Shown: piece by piece, positions 1 to 48,636 of the stretch
Position numbering within the stretch: the first letter of the stretch is position 1
How the letters are laid out: each line of letters starts with the position of its first letter
Assembly: GCA_902776985.1 (NCBI GenBank)
Contig: CACYSD010000001.1
Span: forward strand, 106,758-170,757
Direction: 5' to 3'
Source: an uncultured Bacteroidales bacterium
Lineage (GTDB): Bacteria > Bacteroidota > Bacteroidia > Bacteroidales > Bacteroidaceae
DNA: 64,000 nucleotides
Program-made: the position numbers and the translations under genes
Notes under the pieces: model-generated
What the model was told of the DNA's origin: nothing
The model's database searches: none
What the model saw: the letters and a program-made list of their open reading frames with translations, nothing else

Positions 1-358
1 AGCAAGTAATTTGGAAGAACAAGCACGAAACTACCGTATGATTACAGATATCGTACTCAGCAACGACAACTGTCCGAATATGGTAATCTGGGGACTCAAG
101 GACAATGACAGTTGGCGTCAGGCATCACAGCCACTGCTCTACGATTCAGGCATTAACAAGAAAAAGGCATATTATTCCGTACGTTCGGCTTTACGCCATC
201 ATTTAATAACCAATGAACAAACAGAAATTGAATCAATAACCACACATGCCAAGGACAAGCCATCAAAGATATTTGACCTTTCAGGTAGAGCTGTAGGTAC
301 GGGCAAACTATCTCCAGGTTTGTATATCATGGATGGCAGGAAGATTTACATAAGATAA
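1..358 (+). CDS. C-terminal fragment (5' end outside window) of a secreted glycoside hydrolase, GH10 xylanase-like tail followed by a T9SS (Por) C-terminal sorting domain
   Basis: Frame is open from position 1; ORF track start at 11 is a TTG. Motif WGLKDNDSWR resembles the C-terminal conserved strand of GH10 xylanases. The last ~80 aa (KIFDLSGRAVGTGKLSPGLYIMDGRKIYIR) have the typical T9SS CTD pattern. Confidence 0.5.
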   Translation, partial: ASNLEEQARNYRMITDIVLSNDNCPNMVIWGLKDNDSWRQASQPLLYDSGINKKKAYYSVRSALRHHLITNEQTEIESITTHAKDKPSKIFDLSGRAVGTGKLSPGLYIMDGRKIYIR

Positions 359-11776: not shown

Positions 11777-11849
11777 GGGGTAAAGGGCTTGAGAAGTTTA
11801 ATTAAAATTGTACTTAGTACTTTGTTAAACGGTAAAAAGTTCCACAGCA

Positions 11850-11950
11850 TTGTGGGAAAAAAGTTTCAGCGAAGTGAAACAAAAGTTTCACCGCAGTGAA
11901 AATAAAGTTTCAGCGAAGAGAAAAAAAAGTTTCACTTCGCTGAAACTTTT
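11850..11950. repeat. Array A: four 22-bp-spaced hairpin units GTTTCA-N6-TGAAAC (iteron-like), flanked by an A/T run
   Basis: Units start at 11863, 11885, 11907 and 11929 (exact 22-bp period). Units 1 and 4 are reverse complements of each other. The conserved 5' flank ttgtgggaaaaaagtttca is shared with the second copy at 38913. Confidence 0.6.
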
Positions 11951-11977
11951 TTTCTTTTTGCTTATCGAGGATAAAGA

Positions 11978-12095
11978 CCTGTAGTTTAACGATTTCAGTT
12001 GACTACTTTCAGCCTTATTTGTAATATGGGTTGACTTTGGTTAATACTTTTTTTTAATCTCGATTGTCAACTATTGTTGCTTATTTATGATATTA
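11978..12095. repeat. 118-bp repeat segment X, copy A
   Basis: About 90% identical to the reverse complement of 38781-38898 (tgtagtttaacgattt..gttgactactttcagccttatttgtaatatgggttgacttt..tgtcaactattgttgcttatttatgatat). Confidence 0.6.
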
Positions 12096-12229
12096 GTTGA
12101 TAGTATTTCTGTAATCCGAGTAGAAGGGCGGTATTCCGCCATGAAGCGAACAGGGAAATAAATACATCGACGTATTTGCCATTAAGGATTATTATGTTTA
12201 CCTTTGCACATAGTTATAATATATCAACA

Positions 12230-36181: not shown

Positions 36182-38221
36182 TTATTTTACAAGTACTTTC
36201 TTGCCGTTGATAATGTATAGTCCCTTAGTAGGAGCGGTTACTACGCGTCCTGAGATGTCGAAAATCTTGCCGCTTGTAAGAGTTTCAATAGCATTCATAC
36301 TCTCAATTCCTGTTGTATCATCTGCTCCGTTGAAGAAGAGTTCTACACGACCTTTAGCAGAAGAAGGAGTAATCAGAGCCTTATTAACATAAGCCTTGTT
36401 CGCACCAACTGTAATAGCATTTGCTCCAGTAGCGCCTTCTGTATCGTAAAGAGTATTATTACTTAAGATGTAATAGTTTGCACCTGCAGGTGCTGTAATT
36501 GATGAGAATGTACCGATAAGGCCATTGTTAGTTCCCGCAGAAGCTGCATCATATGTATCAAAATCTGCACGGAAGAAATGGACGTTCAGGACGGTTTTTT
36601 CATTATCTTGGCCATTTACATCGGAAGAAATATAAAAATATGGTTTTCCTGCTTCAAGAAGCCCAGAAACCTTGGTCAGGCTAATACTAGCGCCATCTGT
36701 TCCTGCAATGCTATATACCTCACAACCAGCATAAGCAGCTTTATATGGTAGACAGATTGTCCCAAACTTGCCAGTTTCAGTATATTCTCGTTCTAAATCT
36801 CCGCGAACATATAAATCCCATCTTCCACGACTTGTTATCTTTGTATTTGCGTAGTCAGTTAAATACGCTACAGATGGCTGAATGTCACCTGTAATTTCCA
36901 AAGATTTTATATTAAAAATATCTAGACCATTTGATATACGCAACTGATTCAAATCTATAGCTATAATATTCTGACTATTCCATCTGTCAAGCCACATGCC
37001 AGCGCCAGTACCTGCTGCTTGACCATTATAACTATCTCCACGTACTGAATACTCACTGTTATCTTTAATAATTATCTCATGACTGGCATTTGCTGCTGTA
37101 TTTTCAGTAGCAATTACAAGATAATTCCAATTATATAAATCCACAGGTGTATCAAATGTCCATTTACCATTTTCGAAATTATTAACATCAAAAATGGCAT
37201 CGTTTGCGGCAACAGTTAACTTTTCAGGAACACGTGTTACATTAAGAACATAAAATACCCATTCACTTTTACCAAAGAAATTCTCCGTTTTTACAGATCC
37301 ATCTTTTAGATAGGATGTGATTTTGTAAGTATTTTCTTTTCCGTCAACGGCTGTTACGCCAAAGAAACACCCCTGTTCACCACTATCATCTTTTGCAACA
37401 ATATTACGAGTCCAACCAATATCATTTAAGTAACAATTACCGCCATACCAAGGACCTGTATATACAGACGTCCCGTTTCCTTTAAAAGCTTGAATACGAT
37501 ATAGTGTTGAAACTCCATCGGGCATAACAAGCCCCTCATCGTCAGCTTCTGTAATACGAAAACGGTATGTTCCATTATCATTCACTTTACCCATAACAGT
37601 GTTAATAGATGCTGCACGTATTTGATTGTCAGTATTATCGCCGTAAAGTATTGTCTCATCAGCACTCGCAATGCAGACTAAACGGTTTTCGCTAACAATA
37701 GATGAAAAAGATAATTTTGTTCCAGGAACGTATTCATACTCAAAAGGACCGTAAATATAAACATTGGTTATTGAAACAGAAGCGGGATTGTCGTTATCAA
37801 TAGAATGACCATCTGTAGCACTTGTTGATCCCCATATTGTAATATCCGCAAGATTCGAAAAATCAACAGAAGGGTTAGCTGCTTTTAATGCTACAAGGTC
37901 AATATTATTCTCTCCTGCAACAAGATTTACATCTGCGTAATGATCTGTACCATCATTACTTTTAATTCTCAGGCGAACAAAATCGGCATTTTCACTAAAA
38001 TTGGACAATGTGGCGTGCAATGTCGTATAATTGGAAATGTCTGTCGGAAAGTCTGTACCAATTATCGTGTAACCGGAAGTTGCCTTCCATGTCATTGTAC
38101 TAGTGTTTTTATCCCAATCAGCTCCGTAAACCGACCTAAGTGTTCCGTTTGTTGTTAAAGCTTTGAGTTCAGAAATGCCAAAGGCAAACAACAATGCACT
38201 TAATAGTAAAATTTTTTTCAT
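36182..38221 (-). CDS. Secreted T9SS cargo protein of unknown function (beta-rich, possibly carbohydrate-binding)
   Basis: Signal peptide MKKILLLSALLFAFGISELKA. C-terminal ~80 aa (KIFDISGRVVTAPTKGLYIINGKKVLVK) matches the T9SS type-A CTD pattern. 679 aa. Confidence 0.6.
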   Translation of the reverse strand: MKKILLLSALLFAFGISELKALTTNGTLRSVYGADWDKNTSTMTWKATSGYTIIGTDFPTDISNYTTLHATLSNFSENADFVRLRIKSNDGTDHYADVNLVAGENNIDLVALKAANPSVDFSNLADITIWGSTSATDGHSIDNDNPASVSITNVYIYGPFEYEYVPGTKLSFSSIVSENRLVCIASADETILYGDNTDNQIRAASINTVMGKVNDNGTYRFRITEADDEGLVMPDGVSTLYRIQAFKGNGTSVYTGPWYGGNCYLNDIGWTRNIVAKDDSGEQGCFFGVTAVDGKENTYKITSYLKDGSVKTENFFGKSEWVFYVLNVTRVPEKLTVAANDAIFDVNNFENGKWTFDTPVDLYNWNYLVIATENTAANASHEIIIKDNSEYSVRGDSYNGQAAGTGAGMWLDRWNSQNIIAIDLNQLRISNGLDIFNIKSLEITGDIQPSVAYLTDYANTKITSRGRWDLYVRGDLEREYTETGKFGTICLPYKAAYAGCEVYSIAGTDGASISLTKVSGLLEAGKPYFYISSDVNGQDNEKTVLNVHFFRADFDTYDAASAGTNNGLIGTFSSITAPAGANYYILSNNTLYDTEGATGANAITVGANKAYVNKALITPSSAKGRVELFFNGADDTTGIESMNAIETLTSGKIFDISGRVVTAPTKGLYIINGKKVLVK

Positions 38222-38780
38222 TGTAATTTGAAGTTTATTTAATTAGTTAATAAATAATTGAATACAAACGAGAAAAGGGTTTTGATGGCAGATGCCAACA
38301 AAACCCTTAAACGGTATTATATAAAAAAAACTTAAAACTTGCTGAAACGCAGGAATTATACAACTCGTTGAAACACAGAGAATTACCCCCCCTATTAGGT
38401 TACAGGGAATCTTGCTGAAAAGTGGGAAAGTATTCATCTGTACGGTCTTGATTAATAAAGTTGGTAAAAACTATGATATAATTTTGTTTCGGATGCAAAT
38501 ATATGGAGATTATCGTAGCTAAAATTATAGTATTTAACCAATCACTATCAAATTTGATAACGACAAAAATTTCTTTTTCTCGCCAATCATGTTTCAATTT
38601 TAAAACTTTTTCACATTTTTATGTTGTACAGCATAAAAATCAGTGTAAAATACTGTCTAAATGCCCTAAAATGCTTTTAAAAATATAACATACACCACAA
38701 ATCAATGATTTTAAAAGAATTATCGAAAAAACATGTAATTGCCATTTATGACCCATTAAGAATTAGACGAAGAACCACTT

Positions 38781-38898
38781 ATATCATAAATAAGCAACAA
38801 TAGTTGACAACCTATATTAAAAATAAGTATAAAACAAAGTCAACCCATATTACAAATAAGGCTGAAAGTAGTCAACCAAAATCGTTAAACTACAATTA
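38781..38898. repeat. 118-bp repeat segment X, copy B (inverted relative to copy A)
   Basis: Its reverse complement aligns with 11978-12095 at about 90% identity. Confidence 0.6.
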
Positions 38899-38912
38899 AA
38901 AAGTCCCAAAGC

Positions 38913-39035
38913 GTTGTGGGAAAAAAGTTTCACTGTGCTGAAACTTTATTTTCACTGTGCTGAAACAAAAGTTTCTCTGCGGTGAAACTTTTGTTTCACT
39001 CCCACTGAAACTTTTGTTCCAGTGCGAAGAAACCA
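38913..39035. repeat. Array B: five 22-bp-spaced hairpin units GTTTCA-N6-TGAAAC (iteron-like)
   Basis: Units start at about 38927, 38949, 38971, 38994 and 39016. Same 5' flank ttgtgggaaaaaagtttca as array A. Lies ~160 bp upstream of rhaB. Confidence 0.6.
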
Positions 39036-39191
39036 AAAAACGTCTGTTGTATAACGATTAACAAGGAAATAATTGAAGATTATCCAAGATAATTATTCAG
39101 CTTTGAGCACAAAAAAAACGGGAATAGCATAGCTATTGTTAAAAAATAATGTAAATTTGCAGGATACAAACAATAGAAATCAAACTAACTA

Positions 39192-40616
39192 ATGACATCC
39201 AAGTATTTTTTCTGTGTTGACCTCGGTGCTACAAGCGGACGAACGATTCTCGGCAGCATCGTGAACGACAAGTTACAACAACGCGAACTGACTCGTTTCC
39301 CAAATAATATCATACAGACCGGAGGACATTTCTTCTGGGATATCTATGCTCTCTATAACGAGATTATAAAGGGACTGAAGTTGGTTGCCAGCGAAGGCAT
39401 CGAGATTACCTCAATCGGTATCGATACCTGGGGCTGCGACTTTGTGATGATTGGTAAGGACGGCGGCATCCTCCGCAATCCCTACTGCTACCGCGATCCT
39501 CACACCGACGGTGCAATGGAGGAATACTTCAAACTGATTCCAAAGGAGAAAGTGTATGAGAAGACCGGCATTCAGTTCATGCAGTTCAACTCGCTTTTCC
39601 AACTCGCCACGCTGCGCCGTAACCACGACTCGGCTCTGGAGGCAGCAGAGAAGATTCTCTTTATTCCCGATGCTCTGACATACATGCTTACTGGCGAGGC
39701 TGTTTGCGAATACACCGTGCTCAGCACCAGTCAGATGCTGGATCCCCGCACCAAGAGGATTGACAAGGAACTTATCAATGCCATAGGTCTGAAGGAAGAG
39801 CAGTTTGGCAGATATGTGCAACCAGGCGAGGTGGTAGGTGTACTTAGCGAAGAGGTGCAGAAACAGACAGGTCTCGGTGCGGTGCCCGTAGTGGCTGTTG
39901 CCGGACACGACACAGGTAGTGCTGTGGCTGCTGTTCCTGCAGAGGACGAGAGATTTGCCTACCTCAGTTGCGGCACTTGGTCGCTGTTGGGAATCGAAAG
40001 CAAGGATGCTATCATCAACAAGAAGAGTTTTGAGTATAACTTCACTAACGAAGGTGGAATAGAGGGAACAACCCGTTTCCTGAAGAATATCTGCGGAATG
40101 TGGCTGTTGGAAAGGGCAAGGAAGGAGACCCTCCTCCAAGCTTGGCCATCGGACATTAATCAGATTAATCAAGATGCGATGGAGGCGAAACCGTTCCAGT
40201 CGATTATCAATCCAGATGACCCGCGGTTTGCTAATCCACCGTCAATGATTGAGGCTATCCAGAGTTATTGCCGCGAGACAGGTCAGCATGTGCCGGAGAA
40301 CTACAAGGAGATTGCACGCTGTATCTTCGAGAGTCTCGCACAGAGATACAAGGAAGTGCTGGACTACCTGAAAGAACTGGCACCCTTCCCCATCGAGAAA
40401 CTGCATGTCATCGGTGGAGGTACCTACAACCAGTATCTGATGCAGATGACTGCGAACAGCATCGGGCTGCCAGTAGTTACTGGTCCTGTAGAAGGCACCG
40501 CCATCGGTAATATGATGATTCAGGCAAAAGCCGCCGGTCTTGTCAGCGACATCTTCGCCATGCGCCACATCATCGCCAACAGCATCGAACTGAAGACTTA
40601 CCTGCCGGAAAGCTGA
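39192..40616 (+). CDS. rhaB: Rhamnulokinase (FGGY carbohydrate kinase family)
   Basis: N-terminal CVDLGATSGRTILG; FGGY N- and C-domains; 474 aa. Context with rhamnulose-1-P aldolase and a sugar isomerase. Confidence 0.8.
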   Translation: MTSKYFFCVDLGATSGRTILGSIVNDKLQQRELTRFPNNIIQTGGHFFWDIYALYNEIIKGLKLVASEGIEITSIGIDTWGCDFVMIGKDGGILRNPYCYRDPHTDGAMEEYFKLIPKEKVYEKTGIQFMQFNSLFQLATLRRNHDSALEAAEKILFIPDALTYMLTGEAVCEYTVLSTSQMLDPRTKRIDKELINAIGLKEEQFGRYVQPGEVVGVLSEEVQKQTGLGAVPVVAVAGHDTGSAVAAVPAEDERFAYLSCGTWSLLGIESKDAIINKKSFEYNFTNEGGIEGTTRFLKNICGMWLLERARKETLLQAWPSDINQINQDAMEAKPFQSIINPDDPRFANPPSMIEAIQSYCRETGQHVPENYKEIARCIFESLAQRYKEVLDYLKELAPFPIEKLHVIGGGTYNQYLMQMTANSIGLPVVTGPVEGTAIGNMMIQAKAAGLVSDIFAMRHIIANSIELKTYLPES

Positions 40617-40819
40617 GAAGGACTAAGAAATCCTAGGAAATCCTAAGAAATCCTAAGAAATCCTAGGAAATCCTAGGCGGTTCTAGGCTATACTAGGCAA
40701 TCCTAGGAAAGCCTAGGAAAGCCTAGGAAAGCCTAGGAGAACCTAGGAGAACCTAGGAGAACCTAGGCACTTCTAGGCAGACCTAGGCACTCCTATAAGA
40801 GCCTAGAAAAACCTAAAAC
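40617..40819 (+). repeat. Phased 10-bp tandem repeat array 1 (NNCCTAGGNN, about 20 units) immediately after the rhaB stop codon
   Basis: tcctaggaaa tcctaagaaa ... acctaggaga ... all in register with a 10-nt period. The CCTAGG core is palindromic; A/purine tracts are phased at 10 bp. Confidence 0.7.
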
Positions 40820-40866
40820 AATAATAATAATCAACTCATTATTAACTAATAAAAAAAACCAATAAT

Positions 40867-41532
40867 ATGGAATACGAAACCAAAGGGAAAGTCTTGAAAA
40901 AGGCTGTAGTTTGGAAGGATCTCTATATTTATAAAAAGAGCGATACCATCTATCAGCTGACGGTAGAATTCTGTCATCGATATCTCCCTCAATATGGCGA
41001 TCGTACAGTTGATCAGATGGTGCAGGCTGCCCGCAGCTGCAAACAAAACATCGTTGAAGGCAGCGAGGACGGTCAGACAAGCTCTGAAATGGAGATAAAG
41101 CTACTTAACGTAGCACGAGGAAGTTTGCAGGAATTGTGCTCAGACTATAATGACTACATTAACACTCGCCACATATCCCTTTGGTCTCGTGACAACGAGC
41201 GACAGATACAACTTAGGAATTATTGCAAAGCACACAATGACTATAGCGATTACGCTCCGTTGGTTGAGAAAATGAATGACGAAGAATATGCGAATTTGTT
41301 AATCACTCTCTGTCACCAAACTGACAAGATGATGTGCACTTATATTGAGCAATTAGAAAAGAAATTTGTAACTGAGGGAGGCATTAAAGAGCGTATGCGC
41401 GCTGCTCGAACAGGATACCGGAAAGCTCAAGACTCCCACATGGCAGATTTAGAAACAGAAAACAGACAACTCAAAGCCGAAATTCAAGCTTTAAGAGAGA
41501 GAATAAAAGAAATAGAGGCTAAGCTGCCCTAA
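40867..41532 (+). CDS. Four-helix-bundle protein (23S rRNA intervening-sequence protein / Avd-like family) with C-terminal coiled-coil extension
   Basis: VWKDLYIYKKSDTIYQLTVEFCHRY...QMVQAARSCKQNIVEGSED...LNVARGSLQELCSDY matches the four-helix-bundle (TIGR02436-like) pattern. The C-terminus QLKAEIQALRERIKEIEAKL is a coiled coil. Flanked on both sides by CCTAGG arrays. Confidence 0.6.
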   Translation: MEYETKGKVLKKAVVWKDLYIYKKSDTIYQLTVEFCHRYLPQYGDRTVDQMVQAARSCKQNIVEGSEDGQTSSEMEIKLLNVARGSLQELCSDYNDYINTRHISLWSRDNERQIQLRNYCKAHNDYSDYAPLVEKMNDEEYANLLITLCHQTDKMMCTYIEQLEKKFVTEGGIKERMRAARTGYRKAQDSHMADLETENRQLKAEIQALRERIKEIEAKLP

Positions 41533-41540
41533 GGAGAAAT

Positions 41541-41752
41541 AGGAAAAGCTAGGAAATCCTAGGCTATCCTAGGCAGGCCTAGGCAGACCTAGGCAGACCT
41601 AGGAAATCCTAGGCGGTCCTAGGCAATCCTAGAAAAGCCTAGGAAAGCCTAGGAAAGCCTAGGAGAACCTAGAAGAACCTAGAAAAACCTAAGAAAAGCC
41701 TAGAAAAGCCTAGAAAAGCCTAGAAAAATCCAGAAAACCCCAAGAACTAAAA
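41541..41752 (+). repeat. Phased 10-bp tandem repeat array 2 (NNCCTAGGNN, about 20 units; one 11-bp unit, with decay to CCTAGA/CCAGA at the 3' end)
   Basis: ggaaatccta ggctatccta ggcaggccta ggcagaccta ... aaaagcctag aaaagcctag. Ends 12 bp before the isomerase start. Confidence 0.7.
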
Positions 41753-41764
41753 AAAAATACAACA

Positions 41765-43195
41765 ATGAGTAAACCATTAGTAGAAACCAAAGCGAGAGTG
41801 GGTGTGTTCAGCATTGCTTTGCAAGCTTACCTACCACAGTTTCCTCAACTCGTTCCCGAGTTCGAGGCTCAGTATGCGACATTTAAGAAGACGCTGCCAG
41901 AAACAATAGAAATAATTGACGGAGGAATGGTCACGACCAAGGAACAGTCTATGGCTGCCGGCGATAAGTTCCGCTCAGCCGACGTAGACCTTGTTATCCT
42001 TCAGATGCTGACTTACTGCACATCATATAATATGTTGCCAGCAGTTCGCGACTTGGATGTACCTGTAGTCATCGTGAACGTTCAGAAGAAACTGGCTCCA
42101 GAATACGACAAGACAGATATCCCTACCTGGCTCGGTGAACTCTATGCCTGCGGAGCTATAGGTGAGATGGTTGCCGACCTGAACCGTGCAGGCAAACGTT
42201 CAGCAGTAATTACAGGCGTAGTTGAAGGTGGTGATCCTGAAGTTCAAGCAGAAATTGAGGATTGGTGCCGTGCTGCACAGGTTCGCCGCCGTTTCCGCGA
42301 CACCAACATAGCTCAGATTGGACGTCCTTACCCAGGCATGATGGACCTCTATATCGATGAGACAAACCTCTATCACCGTATGTTTGTATATACCAAGCAA
42401 TTTGACTGGGAACAGATGTGGGCTATCGCAGATAATATCACCGATGAAGCTGCTATCAAGGCTAAGGCAGAAGATATCCTCGCCACATTTGACATTGAAG
42501 GCGGAGGAACCATTGAGAAAGTTTGGGATATGGCAAAGTACGTTGTAGCTTTCGAGCAATGGGTAAAGGATGAGAAGTTGGGAATGATTGCCTCACACTA
42601 TGCAGGTTTTGCCCAAGGCGTTGCCGGCAAGCTCGATTCAATGCTTATTCCCGCGTTCTCCATGCTGATCAAGCAACACACCGCTTGCGCAGTGGAAGGC
42701 GACATGAAGGTAGCTATGGCAATGTCGATTCTGAAAACCATTTCCGGCACAGGCACATTGGCTGAGATGTACAGCATAGACTTTCCGAAGGATATCTGCA
42801 TCATCGGTCATAGCGGTTCTGGCGACTTCGACATCTCTCAGGCAAAGAAACCAACGATGAAGATTGTGCCTGTATTCCACGGAAAGACCGGTGGTGGTTA
42901 CCTAACCCAGTTCTATCCTCCAACAGGTCCTGTGACTTATCTCGCTATCACTCAGGACAAGAACGGAGTGTTCAAGTTTGTTGCAGCAGAGGGAGTCAAC
43001 GAAGAAGGCCCTATCTTCACCTTCGGTGATACCAACATGCGCACCAAGTTCTCGCTTCCTTGTCGCGAATTTGTGAACAAATGGAGCGAAGCCGGTCCTA
43101 CACACCACATGGCTGCTGCCGTAGGTCACCACATCGACACCATACTGAAAGTAGCAAAGATCCTGAATATTGAGTGTGACGTCGTTTGTAGATAA
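41765..43195 (+). CDS. L-arabinose isomerase / L-fucose isomerase-family sugar isomerase (probable L-rhamnose-type isomerase of this operon)
   Basis: 476 aa. VDLVILQMLTYCTSYNMLPAVRDLDVPVVIVNVQ...ACGAIGEM resembles the AraA/FucI N-terminal and central domains. Operon context with rhaB and rhaD. Confidence 0.6.
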   Translation: MSKPLVETKARVGVFSIALQAYLPQFPQLVPEFEAQYATFKKTLPETIEIIDGGMVTTKEQSMAAGDKFRSADVDLVILQMLTYCTSYNMLPAVRDLDVPVVIVNVQKKLAPEYDKTDIPTWLGELYACGAIGEMVADLNRAGKRSAVITGVVEGGDPEVQAEIEDWCRAAQVRRRFRDTNIAQIGRPYPGMMDLYIDETNLYHRMFVYTKQFDWEQMWAIADNITDEAAIKAKAEDILATFDIEGGGTIEKVWDMAKYVVAFEQWVKDEKLGMIASHYAGFAQGVAGKLDSMLIPAFSMLIKQHTACAVEGDMKVAMAMSILKTISGTGTLAEMYSIDFPKDICIIGHSGSGDFDISQAKKPTMKIVPVFHGKTGGGYLTQFYPPTGPVTYLAITQDKNGVFKFVAAEGVNEEGPIFTFGDTNMRTKFSLPCREFVNKWSEAGPTHHMAAAVGHHIDTILKVAKILNIECDVVCR

Positions 43196-43275
43196 AAGAC
43201 CCACCTGAAGACCCACCCCGACCCTCAAAGGGAAGACCCACCCCCTTACCCCTCCCTTGTAAGGAGGGGAGTAGT
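43196..43275 (-). repeat. GC-rich G4-motif hairpin element, copy 4 (extended, with three gaagaccca sub-repeats; G-rich on minus strand)
   Basis: Reverse complement contains CTACTCCCCTCCTTACAAGGGAGGGGTAAGGGGGTGGGTCTTC. Confidence 0.55.
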
Positions 43276-43301
43276 TACCTTTTCAAAACAAAAAGAAAAC
43301 A

Positions 43302-43688
43302 TTGCTAATGAACAGAGTTGCTACATATAAAACTGCATCACCCGACAGGTATGACATTCTGCGTGCCTATGCTCGTAAAAACAGAAAAAATGCAACATTA
43401 GCTGAACAGGTTTTGTGGAAACATCTTAGGGGTGGAGAACTAGGCGTAGAATTCCTACGTCAACACATCGTCGGCGATTACATTGTGGATTTTGCATCAC
43501 GGCATGACGGTCTTATTATCGAGATCGATGGTGGCTACCATGCGGAACGCCAACAAGAAGAAGATGATGCTATTCGACAAAAAAATTTGGAACAAATGGG
43601 TTTTCACTTTCTTCGTTTTTCAAATGAAGAAGTTATGTATAATACCGAAGAGGTTTTAAAACAAATAGAAGATTATTTATATGAATAA
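43302..43688 (+). CDS. DUF559 endonuclease-domain protein (Vsr/restriction-endonuclease-like fold)
   Basis: ATLAEQVLWKHLRG...VEFLRQHIVGDYIVDFASRHDGLIIEIDGGYHAERQQEEDDAIRQKNLEQMGFHFLRF matches the DUF559 pattern (D..E.DG..H motif). 128 aa. Inserted between operon genes. Confidence 0.7.
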   Translation: MLMNRVATYKTASPDRYDILRAYARKNRKNATLAEQVLWKHLRGGELGVEFLRQHIVGDYIVDFASRHDGLIIEIDGGYHAERQQEEDDAIRQKNLEQMGFHFLRFSNEEVMYNTEEVLKQIEDYLYE

Positions 43689-45063
43689 GCAAACAAATTC
43701 TAATAATCAATCTACTCCCCGCCCTCACAGGGAGGGGCAAGGGGGAGGGTCTTCTTCTTTGAAGAGTACCCTTGCGGTCTCTCTGAATAATTACCTTGAT
43801 GCGGGAGCAATCGTAGCAGGTTCAAGCGGAATTACCTTGTGGCAGAATTATCTGGGGCTGTCGGAGATGCATCTGGGTTGGCTCAATGCACTAAGTGCTA
43901 ATGCGCTGGGTGCAGCTATCGGAGCAATCATCGGTGGCTTCCTCGCAGATAAGTTCGGACGTAAGTTCATCTTCACATACAATCTGTTGGTGTATATGCT
44001 TGGTGTGCTCATCATCATGCTGTCCATTAGCTATCCCATGCTCCTTTGCGGATTCCTCGTCACAGGTATTTCAGTAGGAGTGGGAGTTCCTGCATCGTGG
44101 ACATATATCTCTGAAAGCAGTGAGGTTCACAACCGCGGCCGCAACATCTGCATCTCACAGATGTCGTGGGGCATCGGACCTATGCTCATCCTCTTCTTCG
44201 GTATGCTCTTTGCACCAGGCGGCTACTGCTACGGTCCTGTAGAATCGCTGGCTCATGCCATCATCGGTGCCGATGCTTCCCAGGCTGCGGTTGAGGTATT
44301 CTCATCGAGAGTAGTGTTCTTCACCCTCTTCGTTGTTGCCTTCATTGCCTGGAACCTCCAACGTCAGTTGCAGGAAAGCGCTGAGTTCGAAGCCAACAAA
44401 CAGAAAGGCAATAGCGGTATGGTTGAAAACATCAAGATGCTGTTCACCAACCGCATTGCAGTCAAGGCTGTGGTATTCCTTGCAACAATCTATTTGACTT
44501 GGAACCTCGTTGCCTCAGTTATGGGATTCTTCATGCCTCATGTATATGAGACTGCAGGCGGGCTCAGCAACGAAACCGCAAATATGCTTAGTTGCATAAG
44601 CTGGGTATTCGTTGTAGTTACCACCCTCATCATCTCGTTCTTAGTTGACAAGGTTGCACACCGTGTGTTCTACGTCTTCGGTCTGGCAGCTGCACTGACA
44701 GCATGGATTCTCGTCATTGGCGGAAGTATTACCAGCATTGCCGGCATTTGGGTGTTCACCATCCTGTGGGGTATCAACAACGGCAGCAGCGTACAGATAT
44801 TCTATGCACTTTGGGGCAGTGAGCTTTTCCCTGCGAAATTCCGTGCCGGTGCACAGGGACTGATGTTTTTCATCGTCCGTGGTCTCTCAGCGCTGTGGGG
44901 ACTGATCTTCACGCTTATCTACGGAGAGAACGGCGAAGGCTTCACCATCGCAGCCTACTGCATGATTGGTCTCCTCGTTATCTCTCTCGTCGTCGGTTTC
45001 ATCGGTGCCCCCAACACCCGCGGCAAATCGCTGGAACAGATTACAAAGGAAAGATATGGGTAG
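43681..45063 (+). CDS. MFS-family sugar transporter (probable rhamnose/deoxy-sugar permease)
   Basis: 12 predicted transmembrane helices and the MFS motif GGFLADKFGRK. The annotated first ~25 codons (..STPRPHREGQGGGSSS) are the translation of the hairpin repeat; the true start may be downstream. Confidence 0.7.
   Translation: MNKQTNSNNQSTPRPHREGQGGGSSSLKSTLAVSLNNYLDAGAIVAGSSGITLWQNYLGLSEMHLGWLNALSANALGAAIGAIIGGFLADKFGRKFIFTYNLLVYMLGVLIIMLSISYPMLLCGFLVTGISVGVGVPASWTYISESSEVHNRGRNICISQMSWGIGPMLILFFGMLFAPGGYCYGPVESLAHAIIGADASQAAVEVFSSRVVFFTLFVVAFIAWNLQRQLQESAEFEANKQKGNSGMVENIKMLFTNRIAVKAVVFLATIYLTWNLVASVMGFFMPHVYETAGGLSNETANMLSCISWVFVVVTTLIISFLVDKVAHRVFYVFGLAAALTAWILVIGGSITSIAGIWVFTILWGINNGSSVQIFYALWGSELFPAKFRAGAQGLMFFIVRGLSALWGLIFTLIYGENGEGFTIAAYCMIGLLVISLVVGFIGAPNTRGKSLEQITKERYG
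43712..43754 (+). repeat. GC-rich G4-motif hairpin element, copy 5
   Basis: CTACTCCCCGCCCTCACAGGGAGGGGCAAGGGGGAGGGTCTTC. Confidence 0.55.
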
Positions 45064-45091
45064 AAGACCCTCCCGTCAGGGAGGGAGTAAG
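45063..45091. repeat. GC-rich hairpin element, truncated copy 6
   Basis: gaagaccctcccgtcagggagggagtaag has the same ends (GAAGACCC...GGGAGTAG) but lacks the central G-tracts. Confidence 0.45.
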
Positions 45092-45094
45092 TGA

Positions 45095-45232
45095 AGTGAT
45101 AGGAAAACCTAGAAAAGCCTAGGAGAGCCTAGGAAAGCCTAGAAAAGCCTAGGAAAACCTAGGAGAACCTAGGAGAGCCTAGGAAAACCTAGGAGAACCT
45201 AGGCAGACCTAGGCACTCCTAGAAGAACTTAA
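45095..45232 (+). repeat. Phased 10-bp tandem repeat array 3 (NNCCTAGGNN, about 13 units), upstream of rhaD
   Basis: aaaacctaga aaagcctagg agagcctagg aaagcctaga ... agacctaggc actcctagaa. Confidence 0.7.
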
Positions 45233-45260
45233 AAACTCAAAAACTAAAAAACTAAATAAA

Positions 45261-46082
45261 ATGAAAAGTATTCTTGAAAACAGACCTGGATTGCAGGCAG
45301 AAATTGATAAAGTGGCGGAAGTAGCCGGTTATCTCTGGCAGAAGGGATGGGCTGAGCGCAACGGTGGTAATATCACCGTGAATATCACTGAGTATGCGGA
45401 CGACGAAATCCGCAATATGCCTGCTATTAGTGAAGTCTTCCAGATTGGCACAACACTGCCCTATCTCAAAGGCTGTTATTTCTACTGCAAAGGCACAGGC
45501 AAACGTATGCGCGACCTCGCACGCTGGCCTATGCAGAACGGTAGTATCATCCGCATTCTCGACGACTGCAAAAGCTACGTCATCATTGCAGATGAGCCTG
45601 TGATGCCAACATCGGAACTGCCTTCACACCTGTCCATGCATGACTACCTCATAGGTTCGGGAAGCTGCTATAAGGCTTCGCTCCACACCCACCCTATCGA
45701 ACTGATTGCAATGAGCCATAACAGAGGAATGTTGAGAAAGGATGTTATGACTCATCTTCTCTGGTCTATGATTCCAGAAACTTTGGCGTTTGCACCATTA
45801 GGATTGGGAATCGTGCAGTACGAACTGCCAGGCAGCGTGAAATTGGCAAAAGCTACACTGGAAAAAATCAAGGACTACGATGTAGTGCTATGGGAGAAGC
45901 ACGGAGTATGTGCTGTAGGAACAGACATCATGGATGCCTTCGACCAGGTTGATGTGCTCAACAAGTCTGCTAATATCTATATGTGTGCAAAGAACATGGG
46001 CTTCACTCCTGACGGCATGACCGACGAAGCTATGCGCGAAGTACAGCAAGTCTTCAAACTTCCGAAGAAGAGACCATGCTAA
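45261..46082 (+). CDS. rhaD: Rhamnulose-1-phosphate aldolase (class II aldolase/adducin family)
   Basis: WAERNGGNITVNI and HTHP metal-binding motif region. 273 aa. Confidence 0.8.
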   Translation: MKSILENRPGLQAEIDKVAEVAGYLWQKGWAERNGGNITVNITEYADDEIRNMPAISEVFQIGTTLPYLKGCYFYCKGTGKRMRDLARWPMQNGSIIRILDDCKSYVIIADEPVMPTSELPSHLSMHDYLIGSGSCYKASLHTHPIELIAMSHNRGMLRKDVMTHLLWSMIPETLAFAPLGLGIVQYELPGSVKLAKATLEKIKDYDVVLWEKHGVCAVGTDIMDAFDQVDVLNKSANIYMCAKNMGFTPDGMTDEAMREVQQVFKLPKKRPC

Positions 46083-48547
46083 AGTGAAATTTCCTGACCC
46101 TGAAGAAGTGGTGAGGAGAAATAGATTCGAATAGTTCCCGTGCGGACATCAGTGTCCCAAGCGGGAACTGTTCCGTTATTACGGGCATTACGCATCATAG
46201 CGCCTTTAGCTATGTAGGCTACAAGACGACCGTTCTTCACACGGCAGCGAGGCTGGTTCTTGTCACGAGTATCACGGATATCGCCGTTCTCCATGCCAAG
46301 CAGACGGGCATTGCCCTGTACACGGCAGGAAATCTCGTTGTCGGCAAGAGTCACGACTTTACCATCTTCATCAACAACCTCGACAAGAATCTGCACCACA
46401 TCACCATTGCCAGCAAGCTGTTTCTTGTCGGCAGTGACACGAAGTGCGTAAGGGCGTCCGGTTGTGGCTATCTCTGCCGAAGCACCGTCAACCTCGCAAC
46501 GAAGTGTTCCCGGAGCGTATTCCACATCCCAATAAAGTATGTTGGTAGCCTCATCACGCTGTGGGTCCCCTCCGATTGGAGAACCGTTAAGAAGTAGGTG
46601 TGCCGACTGTGCATTGGTGTAGCACACCACACGTACACGCTGACCTATCTCGTAGTTCCAAACCGCAGGAGCATACTGACTCACGTAGCCGCCAGCGTTA
46701 TTGCGACGTCCGCGCTGCTGCATCTGTGGATAGGTTCCGATATAGCACATCGGAGTCTCACTCCAGAGCGACGCACGGTAATAACCGTTCGGTTTAATCT
46801 GACCGGCGAGGTCAAGCAGACCGGCTTCACTACCTCGTGCCGGCCACGGTCCGCTTTCTCCAAGATAGTCAATACCTGTCCACAGGAACTGACCGAAGAT
46901 ATGTTCATTGTCAGTTACGGCACGCCATGCAGCCAAATCGTGACGGTTCTCGCTTCCGTAAATCACACGTTTGGGATATTTAGCATGGTCTTCTCCGTAA
47001 CGGCTTTCGGTGTAGTTATATCCAACCACATCGACTGCTTCAGGATAAGCGGTCTCGTTCGACATCACCACACCAGCCAAGGCTCCGGTAACAGCACGGG
47101 AGGAGTCGATGCCACGTACGATTTTGGACAAACGCTTGGCAATCTCTCCGATTCGTTCTGCACGAGGAGCATCTGACTTGAATCCGCCATAGATGGGCTG
47201 CGTCATACTCTTGTCGCCATTGAGCACAGGATGGCTGTATGGGTCGTTTGGATAATCCACCTCATTGCCTATGCTCCACATGAAGATTGAAGGATGGCAG
47301 CGATCACGACGAACCATATCAGCTACGTCACGGTCAATCCATTCCTCGAAATAGTCGAACGTTCCTTCAAAACCAGGCGTTCCCTGATTCCATCCCTTCA
47401 ACCACTTGCGTTTGGGAAATTCCCATTCGTCGCTGGCCTCATCCATAACAAGGAGTCCGAGAGAGTCACACAACTCATAAACCATAGGTGCATGTGGATT
47501 ATGACTCATGCGAATGGCATTTACGCCTAAAGATTTCAGGGTCTGCAGACGGGTACGCCACACAGCAGCAGGAACAGCTGTACCCAGCACGCCTGCATCA
47601 TCGTGCAAGCAAACACCCTTAACCTTCATCCATTTGCCGTTGAGCGCAAAACCACGGTCGGGTGAGAAGGTCAGAGTACGGATGCCAAGAGAAACAACCG
47701 AACGGTCGATGTCGTTACCGTCTTTCTGCAAACGGGTAACAATTTTATAAAGGTAGGGATTGGCGAGTGTCCACAACTGTGTATTCTTAATCTGTACAGT
47801 TGCAGTCTGTCGCTGCTCAGAAGGAATCTTCACCTTAGCCGTTCCGACAACTTTTCCTGACGCATCGTAAATCTCAACGATTGCTGCATAGTCAGCACCT
47901 CCAGCTGTGGCCTGCACATCCACCTCAACAGTGGCATTGCTGCCAGAAAGTTTCTTGACTCTCCATGCACTACCCCACTGAGCCAGATGGACTTCGGGTG
48001 CACTGATAATCCACACATTGCGATTGATGCCGCTGCCTGTGTACCATCGGGAATCGTTCTGACGAGAGTGATCCACACGGACTGCCAGCACATTGTCGCC
48101 TGAGCGGTTGAGATGAGGAGTCAGTTCATAGAGGAACGAGGCAAATCCGCTGGGACGATAACCCAGCTTCACTCCGTTCAGATAAACTGTAGAACGGTTA
48201 TAGACACCTTCAAAATAGATATAGATTCTTTTTCCTGTTGCCAAAGCAAGACTGTCGGGAGAGAAATGGCAACGATACAACCCTATTCCACCAGGAAGAT
48301 AACCCTGACACGAACCGCGGTCAGGCGACATAGGTAGCGAAACACTCCAGTCATGAGGAATGTGAACACGTTGCCAGCGGCTGTCGTTGTAATCGGTATT
48401 CACTGCGGCAGAGTCATCTGCAAGTTGGAACAGCCAACCTTCATTAAGCCGACTACTTTCGCCAAAAGAAACAGGACTCTGCTGAGCCAACATAGTAAAA
48501 GAAGGCATCACGAATGCCATCAACAGGGAAAGGAAAAGCTTTTTCAT
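46079..48547 (-). CDS. Glycoside hydrolase family 2 (beta-galactosidase/beta-glucuronidase-like)
   Basis: Signal peptide; N-terminal sugar-binding domain (RWQRVHIPHDWSV), Ig-like domain and TIM-barrel with WSIGNE catalytic region. 822 aa. Confidence 0.8.
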   Translation of the reverse strand: MKKLFLSLLMAFVMPSFTMLAQQSPVSFGESSRLNEGWLFQLADDSAAVNTDYNDSRWQRVHIPHDWSVSLPMSPDRGSCQGYLPGGIGLYRCHFSPDSLALATGKRIYIYFEGVYNRSTVYLNGVKLGYRPSGFASFLYELTPHLNRSGDNVLAVRVDHSRQNDSRWYTGSGINRNVWIISAPEVHLAQWGSAWRVKKLSGSNATVEVDVQATAGGADYAAIVEIYDASGKVVGTAKVKIPSEQRQTATVQIKNTQLWTLANPYLYKIVTRLQKDGNDIDRSVVSLGIRTLTFSPDRGFALNGKWMKVKGVCLHDDAGVLGTAVPAAVWRTRLQTLKSLGVNAIRMSHNPHAPMVYELCDSLGLLVMDEASDEWEFPKRKWLKGWNQGTPGFEGTFDYFEEWIDRDVADMVRRDRCHPSIFMWSIGNEVDYPNDPYSHPVLNGDKSMTQPIYGGFKSDAPRAERIGEIAKRLSKIVRGIDSSRAVTGALAGVVMSNETAYPEAVDVVGYNYTESRYGEDHAKYPKRVIYGSENRHDLAAWRAVTDNEHIFGQFLWTGIDYLGESGPWPARGSEAGLLDLAGQIKPNGYYRASLWSETPMCYIGTYPQMQQRGRRNNAGGYVSQYAPAVWNYEIGQRVRVVCYTNAQSAHLLLNGSPIGGDPQRDEATNILYWDVEYAPGTLRCEVDGASAEIATTGRPYALRVTADKKQLAGNGDVVQILVEVVDEDGKVVTLADNEISCRVQGNARLLGMENGDIRDTRDKNQPRCRVKNGRLVAYIAKGAMMRNARNNGTVPAWDTDVRTGTIRIYFSSPLLQGQEISL

Positions 48548-48565
48548 AAGCGAATTAATTCTGGA

Positions 48566-48622
48566 TGTCGTTATGACGATATGACGTAATAACTATATAA
48601 CGTTATATCGATATGACGCTAA
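48566..48622. promoter_or_regulatory. Conserved ~50-bp intergenic module with palindrome TATAACGTTATA, copy 2 (upstream of the GH2 gene)
   Basis: cgttatgacgatatgacgtaataactatataacgttatatcgatatgacgct. Confidence 0.35.
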
Positions 48623-48636
48623 AACGTCCTTAAGGT

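Follow-up and report, generated by a model that had tools for sequence, protein, structure and literature searches.

A four-helix-bundle suffix gene and two flanking CCTAGG repeat arrays form one inserted unit in a sugar-utilisation operon of a rumen Prevotella-like bacterium

In a 64,000-nt stretch of DNA from a rumen Prevotella-like bacterium (the window), a gene for a four-helix-bundle protein with a suffix domain and the two arrays of CCTAGG repeats on either side of it form one inserted unit. This cassette lies inside a sugar-utilisation operon, surrounded by genes for an FGGY kinase, a fucose/arabinose-type isomerase, an MFS transporter and a class II aldolase. PF05635 proteins, to which the product is related, are common in bacteria, where they occur in rRNA intervening sequences (IVS) and as Avd of diversity-generating retroelements, and the ORFs of IVS were first described in the early 1990s. 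No description of a pairing between such a gene and repeat arrays was found in the searchable literature. A first-pass annotation of the window had put forward the repeat association as a concrete lead, and both the HMM search and the inspection of homologues for arrays came out in favour of it. The association turns the label 'function unknown', which stand-alone PF05635 proteins have carried, into a direct question, namely whether each protein binds its own array.

Insertion of the gene and its arrays into the operon

The operon was compared with 80 related operons, which were obtained from a metagenome scan with the isomerase as the query. The gene and the CCTAGG arrays were absent from 79 of the 80, in which the corresponding spacer measured ~70-100 bp or held other content, and a third CCTAGG array of the window was likewise absent from the same 79. 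Thus, both the segment at 40617-41764 (1148 bp) and the third array are insertions. The sole related operon with gene and arrays, L081, comes from essentially the same strain as the window, and none of the related operons presented an isogenic empty site for the window's insertion. No transposase, integrase or attC-type site was found, the cassette consisting of one ORF without such a domain.

TRF reported period-10 arrays on both sides of the gene (Table 1), in agreement with the first-pass annotation, which had placed the gene between two repeat arrays. A unit of the upstream array consists of a CCTAGG core and a variable 4-nt spacer, and this array starts 7 nt past the FGGY kinase stop codon; the downstream array opens, at about 41505, with degenerate units that run across the final codons of the gene and its stop codon. 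The third array, which has no gene, sits 3.5 kb downstream of the gene in the spacer between the MFS transporter and the aldolase. Every array of the window is followed by a short A-rich leader and then by the next start codon. The pattern CCTAGGN4CCTAGG, with at most one mismatch, matched 36 times against 0.07 expected, and all of the matches were inside the three arrays.

The unit order AAAT-CGGT-CAAT-AAAGx3-AGAAx2-3 is common to the upstream and downstream arrays of the window, and the third array has the same middle block as these two, together with the 3' terminal units of the upstream array. When unit order was scored, the window's flanking arrays reached 15, compared with at most 4 for cross-locus pairs. 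That flanking arrays are always duplicates of one another was rejected as a general rule, because it applied to the window only: own-pair scores at other loci were 0-4, and the flanking arrays there have a common orientation and differing unit order. The 666-nt gene differed by 3 substitutions from that of the near-identical L081, and the arrays of the two differed by indels of -11, -30, +10 and -11 bp, corresponding to about one to three units. We propose slippage or recombination as the process by which whole units are added to the arrays or dropped from them.

Table 1. Features of the cassette and of the third array, given as window positions or as residues of the window protein.
Feature	Position	Strand	Evidence
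Upstream array, ~17 units of 10 bp	40617..40806	+	TRF 40623-40806, pattern search, unit list
A-rich leader, last upstream unit to ATG	40807..40866	+	Sequence
Four-helix-bundle suffix gene	40867..41532	+	ATG start, 221 aa, ORF confirmed
Helical bundle	residues about 15-135		
TIGR04258 suffix domain	residues 138-186		
Basic stretch IKERMRAARTGYRKAQDS	residues 173-190		
Leucine zipper, Asn199 at heptad 'a' position	residues 192-220		
Downstream array, ~20 units	41505..41746	+	TRF 41540-41746, pattern search, unit list
Short A-rich leader before isomerase start codon, right insertion edge	41747..41764	+	
Third CCTAGG array, gene-less, ~13 units	45090..45228	+	TRF 45100-45228

The encoded protein

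The first-pass annotation had assigned the N-terminal part of the protein to the four-helix-bundle / 23S-IVS family, and this placement was confirmed by HMM search and by fold. The match to PF05635 (23S_rRNA_IVP, residues 17-92, E 3.1e-8) was marginal, at 34.2 bits against the Pfam gathering score of 33.8, and TIGR02436 (four helix bundle protein, residues 22-90) was matched with 34.7 bits against the NCBIfam cut-off of 24. The clearest match was to TIGR04258 (4helix_suffix, NCBIfam), with 76.6 bits against a cut-off of 40. All 48 homologues scanned matched PF05635 at E <= 0.05, several of them under the gathering score, and close homologues are annotated in their source databases as 'four helix bundle suffix domain-containing protein'. 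Since the family already has a name, TIGR04258, the protein is not an unclassified relative of Avd.

An AlphaFold2 monomer model built on 48 homologues (mean pLDDT 83.6) presented a helical bundle followed by a single unbroken helix at 173-219. In a Foldseek search against the PDB, the ten best matches were all to 2GSC (Xcc0516) or 2RLD (BT_0352, S23 ribosomal protein family), both of which are solved members of the S23p/IVS family; probabilities were 0.91-1.00 and target-normalised TM scores were up to 0.75, with E-values of only 0.035-0.44. The C-terminal coiled coil noted earlier was thus recovered as the zipper helix 173-219, with the qualification that the C-terminal part is not a coiled coil alone, as the TIGR04258 suffix domain precedes it. 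The helix has a basic start and continues as a heptad leucine zipper with the spacing R185-x9-L195-x6-L202-x6-L209-x6-I216, in which Asn199 is conserved. The basic stretch has a pI of 10.9, compared with 6.3 for the whole protein, and is its sole basic patch, the remainder being neutral. Among the homologues, including those of clades with other array cores and periods, GGIKERMxAARTGYR is invariant, and 95 columns are invariant among 48 homologues of ~75% identity, which indicates that the gene is under constraint.

The likeness of the C-terminal helix to bZIP domains was partial. Sub-threshold matches to bZIP_1 were obtained for 37 of 48 homologues (best 26.6 bits against a cut-off of 27.6), and these spanned profile positions 18-53 only, which is mostly zipper together with the last part of the basic region. 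No homologue scored above the Pfam gathering score for bZIP_1 or bZIP_2, the window protein had no bZIP match at all, and other coiled-coil families matched the homologues about as often as bZIP did. The segment aligned in register with the bZIP of ATF-4, weakly (E 0.15), and the position of the signature Asn of the bZIP basic region (N-x7-R) is held by Met177 in the window protein. As the basic helix is identical in clades that differ in core and period, it cannot alone set specificity. These bZIP-like features fit, short of proof, a dimer that would read a palindromic core in duplex DNA.

Homologues and their arrays

The family was extensive when clustered at 90% identity, with more than 7,900 matches, most of which lie on very short contigs, and narrow at 50% identity, where 247 clusters had the suffix domain. 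A scan with one genome per species gave 346 relatives, and the 80 that were kept came from rumen and gut Prevotella, Bacteroidaceae and Alloprevotella. Of the 67 evaluable loci in the close clade, 63 had an array of 3 or more in-phase units next to the gene, on both sides in 32, downstream only in 24 and upstream only in 7; the upstream array was missing in about 40% of close-clade loci. The idea that homologues would also be flanked by CCTAGG arrays therefore held for the close clade, and did not extend to divergent clades, which carry another core and period. The median array had 7 units. Upstream arrays started at a median of -1 nt relative to the stop codon of the preceding gene, downstream arrays began, at the median, 14 nt short of the ORF end (72% inside the ORF), and the leader had a median length of 36 nt. 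Some copies, L014, L031 and L041 among them, had almost no array. In 0.82 Mb of control operon loci, no array of the kind that adjoins the gene was found; short tandem arrays of many other kinds, without a gene, occurred in spacers of these genomes.

The upstream neighbour was co-oriented with the gene in 60 of 75 loci (p 1.6e-7) and the downstream neighbour in 44 of 76. A dependence of array presence on neighbour orientation was also considered and was not significant. In the leader of the window gene, read by eye, no TAnnTTTG-type promoter motif was seen, which together with the co-orientation of the upstream gene suggests expression by read-through. Insertion sites were varied, with GH43, sulfatase, RimM, RecA, SOD and NrdD contexts among others, and type I restriction genes recurred as neighbours, HsdS upstream in 12 of 65 homologues and HsdR downstream in 11 of 74. 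No relative was found on viral contigs in IMG/VR. Cultured carriers are Prevotella nigrescens, with the homologue WP_004367454.1 in FDAARGOS_1486, and Prevotella sp. ne3005. One relative lies on the 568-kb replicon of P. nigrescens, where it has a promoter-like motif of the sequence TAccTTTG and is followed by a short CCTAG array.

Conservation of the array units

The arrays beside divergent homologues have CTATAG or TCTAGA as their core and repeat every 9 bp. Automatic core scoring assigned CCTAGG with period 10 to 44 loci, CTATAG with period 9 to 8 and TCTAGA with period 9 to 3, so that all three motif classes are palindromic hexamers. The nearest protein relative had the same core in 54 of 55 cases, a value that 0 of 10,000 label shuffles reached, shared descent being uncorrected in this comparison. 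A motif that changes with the protein clade is what a specific partner relation predicts, and it suggests that the protein recognises its own repeats, although plain co-descent of a gene and its flanks could also produce such co-variation. The 9-bp period found in two clades weakens a strict argument from helical phasing.

Within CTAG-anchored units, position -1 was C in 79-85% and position +1 was G in 83-85%, and conservation was weaker at the next positions out (T in 42-49%, A in 64-72%). The spacers carried 0.1-0.8 bit and comprised 84-112 different 4-mers. This conservation of cores with free spacers held across proteins diverged to 62% identity, which argues against neutral satellites. 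Outside the arrays, CTAG itself is by far the rarest tetranucleotide (0.045 of expectation), and 44 of the 55 copies in the window are inside arrays; the 11 copies outside the arrays compare with 99 expected from a Markov model or 244 from base composition, and the depletion is lineage-wide, about 20-fold. Not a single CCTAGG occurred outside the arrays in the window. Thus, a protein that reads CCTAGG would have hardly any sites apart from the arrays. Arrays of CTATAG contain no CTAG, and CTATAG is not avoided.

Recognition of the arrays as DNA or RNA

Upstream spacers of each locus were compared with the reverse complement of the downstream spacers by token alignment, with cross-locus pairs as controls, and the complementarity was 1.04 for own pairs and 0.92 for controls (p 0.64). 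Of 24 loci scored for array orientation, both arrays were A-rich in 13, both were T-rich in 6 and the two were opposite in 1, that is, arrays were co-oriented in 19 of 20 loci with a clear bias. Among units with a single mismatch, G->A changes at G5/G6 on the sense strand numbered 85, compared with 39 C->T changes at C1/C2 (p 4e-5). Pairing in RNA would favour the G.U-compatible C->U change, and the excess of G->A is the opposite and speaks against an RNA stem. A perfect RNA stem across the gene was therefore rejected, as the spacers were no better than cross-locus controls and the G.U-wobble test was contrary. The minimum-free-energy fold of the window cassette consisted of local hairpins and some pairing between arrays, in which 49 of 184 upstream-array bases pair with the downstream array, and no Rfam family was matched above threshold, with only chance matches to hairpin-type miRNA models. 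The non-complementarity of spacers and the mismatch bias favour a dimer recognising the palindromic core in duplex DNA.

Sister cassettes in the same spacers

In other relatives, classic four-helix-bundle genes of 120 aa occupy the kinase-isomerase spacer, preceded by (GAGAGGT)n and followed by (ACCTCTC)n. Flanks were inverted in this way in 5 of 5 cases, a count that includes cases in the MFS-aldolase spacer, and they pair with each other in the minimum-free-energy structure of L129, the one case folded. The same spacer may instead hold GxxExxY-like genes with (AAAATCT)n and (AGATTTT)n, inverted in 3 of 3, or gene-less arrays. The DUF559 gene of the window is a further insertion, situated between inverted 45-nt elements. 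At least four kinds of small gene cassette, each with flanking repeats of its own, have thus settled in operon spacers of rumen and gut Prevotellaceae.

Discussion

The explanation that we tentatively prefer, with a confidence approaching but not reaching even, is a selfish cassette whose zipper-dimerised protein would bind the palindromic cores as DNA. The cassette has entered a spacer that is transcribed as part of a sugar-utilisation operon, with a co-oriented gene upstream of it, and is probably expressed by read-through. The arrays would serve as its cis element and the encoded protein as their partner: two chains may dimerise through the C-terminal leucine zipper, so that the invariant basic helix before the zipper would contact the core t-CCTAGG-a in double-stranded DNA, with one dimer per 10-bp unit. 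The protein would then cover the DNA next to its gene, on one flank or on both. In solved relatives the four-helix-bundle domain is pentameric, and here it could join dimers into a higher-order complex. The arrays would gain or lose whole units, as between the window and L081, and could turn up in neighbouring spacers. The complex might serve in self-regulation or insulation, or might help the cassette to persist or spread. Observations that count against this explanation include that the protein as a whole is not basic, with its pI of 6.3, and that the sister cassettes have inverted, non-palindromic arrays, which pair as RNA in the minimum-free-energy fold.

The second of these leads to the strongest competing explanation, an IVS-like RNA element in which the arrays act in the read-through transcript as hairpin stacks or by pairing across the gene, the protein being uninvolved in recognition; RNase III could then excise the cassette mRNA from the operon transcript, or 3' hairpins could stabilise the mRNA. 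We consider this unlikely, though it deserves attention. In its support, ORFs of the same family in 23S IVS lie between complementary ends at which RNase III cuts (PMC4990558), inverted flanks were found for the classic four-helix-bundle, GxxExxY-like and DUF559 cassettes, a part of the upstream array pairs with the downstream array in the computed fold, the upstream gene tends to be co-oriented, and the downstream array is the more constant one, whichever way the next gene points. With co-oriented arrays and non-complementary spacers, however, only 6 of 10 nt could pair across the gene, pairing-breaking G->A changes exceed the G.U-compatible ones, stems of CUAUAG or UCUAGA with 3-nt loops would be weak by a nearest-neighbour estimate, the spacers are not stable tetraloops, and Rfam offered no family above threshold. 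A smaller probability still, such that we regard it as improbable, goes to arrays that are functionless, slippage-prone satellites at the ends of an inserted gene, their clade-specific motifs reflecting common descent only. Whole-unit indels between near-identical strains, blocks of identical units (AAAGx3, AGAAx3), decayed array edges, the many unrelated 7-11-bp arrays in spacers of these genomes and the nearly array-less copies would all be expected of satellites. A neutral array should nevertheless lose its cores as fast as its spacers, yet the palindromic core has been retained and is still in phase. The cores are also built around CTAG, which is avoided ~20-fold elsewhere, and every motif class is a palindromic hexamer.

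[quoted passage not shown] The HsdS and HsdR neighbours and a Vsr-like DUF559 gene in the same operon point in that direction. Most copies, on the other hand, are in housekeeping or glycan-use contexts, CTATAG arrays do without CTAG and their motif is not avoided, and the DUF559 gene was inserted independently and carries inverted repeats of its own; we find this reading highly improbable. PADLOC returned 0 defence families at E <= 0.1, and a known anti-phage defence system was rejected for want of a match. A diversity-generating retroelement, of which the gene would be a remnant or a remote part and the protein the Avd-type accessory factor, is essentially refuted. Avd is a basic protein, whereas the window protein is not. 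The report of the first-pass annotation that reverse transcriptase, template repeat and variable repeat are lacking was borne out in the range covered: no reverse-transcriptase domain was present in the ORFs scanned within about 10 kb, and no TR/VR-like repeat pair was present in the 64 kb. The domains of those ORFs were CLC channel, HepT-like, FGGY kinase, isomerase, DUF559, MFS, aldolase, GH2 and HI0933-like, with one 679-aa ORF that had no Pfam match, and the repeats of at least 45 nt in the window were the arrays, two coding repeat sets, one regulatory-region repeat and the DUF559 flanks. Reverse transcriptases were also missing from the commonest neighbour families of 65 upstream and 74 downstream homologue neighbours, and no viral contigs carry the family. 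What remains in favour of such a remnant is that PF05635 is a family related to Avd (PMC10053308).

A wider claim, that four-helix-bundle 'IVS proteins' bind their own flanking arrays and represent an unrecognised class of mobile cassettes without transposase, the suffix subfamily reading its array with a bZIP-like helix, appears to us doubtful at present, though it is worth stating for its consequences. If true, this class would colonise transcribed spacers (operons, type I restriction-modification loci and rRNA helices) in Bacteroidales and beyond, and it would provide a function for a long-unexplained protein family as well as a new mechanism of propagation by repeats plus protein. The cassettes also break metagenome assemblies, with most homologues found on 1-2 kb contigs, and they could affect operon expression and type I restriction loci.

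Comparison with known systems

A close known parallel is the 23S rRNA IVS of Leptospira, Coxiella, Xanthomonas and Brucella. The IVS shares with the cassette the PF05635 family and a small ORF embedded in a host transcript, and IVS are regarded as selfish, with short tandem repeats of variable copy number by the ORF and flanks that can pair (PMC4990558). In Coxiella, the IVS has variable heptamer repeats before an S23p ORF, and RNase III cuts at its complementary ends (PMC4990558). Given this parallel and the sister cassettes, the cassette is one version of the IVS-type selfish ORF elements, set in an mRNA and distinguished by the design of its arrays. An IVS sits in helix 25 or 45 of 23S rRNA, whereas the cassette is in the spacer of an mRNA operon, and no rRNA match was found in 38200-46200. 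In addition, the window protein has a suffix domain and a leucine zipper, long co-oriented arrays of palindromic hexamers with free spacers take the place of the terminal inverted repeat pair of an IVS, and our tests argue against a simple RNA stem in the window family. Avd resembles the protein through the remote homology reported for the four-helix-bundle domain (PMC10053308) and through solved relatives that are homopentamers. It differs in that the window gene has no reverse transcriptase, template or variable repeat, or target gene beside it, and in the suffix-plus-zipper architecture of a protein that is not basic.

Eukaryotic bZIP proteins are similar in their continuous helix, basic stretch, R-x9-L-x6-L-x6-L-x6-I spacing, Asn at an 'a' position and, as a candidate only in our case, palindromic target; the window protein departs from them by having Met for the signature Asn and by fusion of the domain to a four-helix bundle. 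In the parC/ParR system of plasmid R1 and in the heptad arrays of the omega protein, a dimeric protein binds adjoining repeats cooperatively, with one dimer per unit. These systems likewise have arrays of ~7-11-bp repeats beside a gene, and their mode of binding is the one in our proposed explanation, but they rely on a ribbon-helix-helix fold and a partition ATPase, while the cassette encodes another fold and no partition ATPase, is chromosomal and within operons, has many insertion sites and is made of palindromic units. REP sequences with their RAYT transposase, and other repeat families that have a cognate gene, resemble the cassette in that short palindromic repeats, specific to the clade, flank the gene to which they belong and sit between the genes of operons; unlike them, the cassette has no transposase fold, and its repeats form tandem arrays at the gene rather than hundreds of dispersed copies.

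Gene insertions in the operon spacers

The DUF559 gene is a separate insertion, present in only 4 of the 80 related operons, which were collected from a metagenome scan with the isomerase; in L091, L097 and L121 (L-numbers denote the compared loci), the insertion was arranged as in the window. An element of ~45 nt rich in G/C runs stands in inverted copies on both sides of the gene, and each copy contains a hairpin, CCCCTCCC..GGGAGGGG. Translation of the downstream copy adds ~23 aa to the N-terminus of the MFS transporter.

Other cassettes occupy spacers of the same operon in relatives. Classic four-helix-bundle genes, encoding 120 aa, were preceded by (GAGAGGT)n and followed by its reverse complement (ACCTCTC)n in all cases (5/5), and L122 also carries an inverted pair of these two arrays with no gene in between. 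In the kinase-isomerase spacer of L104, L115 and L119 we found ORFs of ~145 aa, GxxExxY-like as judged by eye, preceded by AAAATCT-type units and followed by AGATTTT-type units, and remnants of this cassette in the same spacer of L086 and L102. The isomerase of the window (operon at 39192-46082) was 88-97% identical to those of relatives (L082-L160), while identity in the same operons was far lower for the kinase (about 55-80%), the transporter (about 68-87%) and the aldolase (about 71-84%).

Locations of features in the window and in compared loci
Feature	Location	Remarks
DUF559 insertion	window 43233-43753	ORF 43302-43688; Vsr-like endonuclease fold
Solo copy of the ~45-nt DUF559-flanking element	window 25548-25594	
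8-bp arrays (ACGTTATA / TATAACGA)	window 27023-27063 and 48565-48626	spacers between minus-strand genes
HepT-like ribonuclease ORF	window 35507-35854	toxin-type, 115 aa
Classic four-helix-bundle genes with GAGAGGT/ACCTCTC flanks	L120, L129, L148	kinase-isomerase spacer
	L122, L141	MFS-aldolase spacer
Family members in type I restriction-modification operons	L004, L013, L044, L077, L078, L167, L170 and others	

Repeat arrays and tetranucleotide depletion

In the whole window outside the CCTAGG arrays, CTAG was depleted ~20-fold (11 observed, compared to 244 from base composition) and GATC ~3-fold; CTAG depletion was common to all related loci (L001-L173). In L073 (581-1324), an array similar to the 8-bp arrays, (AATCGAAT/AAACGAAT)n, stands before an ORF that is distantly four-helix-bundle-suffix-like and carries a zinc-ribbon-like motif at its C-terminus, and operon spacers of several relatives are filled with related 8-mers (CGAAATAA, AATATCGA). 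A 22-bp repeat, AAAGTTTCAGCGAAGTGAAAC-like, forms arrays at window positions 11811-12097 and 38777-39000, and a 118-nt inverted repeat (92% complementary) also joins these two places; together they link sequence lying upstream of the kinase gene to a region 27 kb away. These repeats may represent shared regulatory sites.

Family members in restriction-modification operons

Two copies of the four-helix-bundle suffix family gene appear to be pseudogenes: in L036 (10001-10669; from the isolate Prevotellaceae bacterium MN60) and L048 (10001-10651) each is broken into two ORFs, with the flanking arrays still in place. About one sixth of family members lie in type I restriction-modification operons, between hsdS and hsdR (or hsdM), and one such operon, in L078, holds two paralogues whose array cores differ, CTATAG versus CTCTAG.
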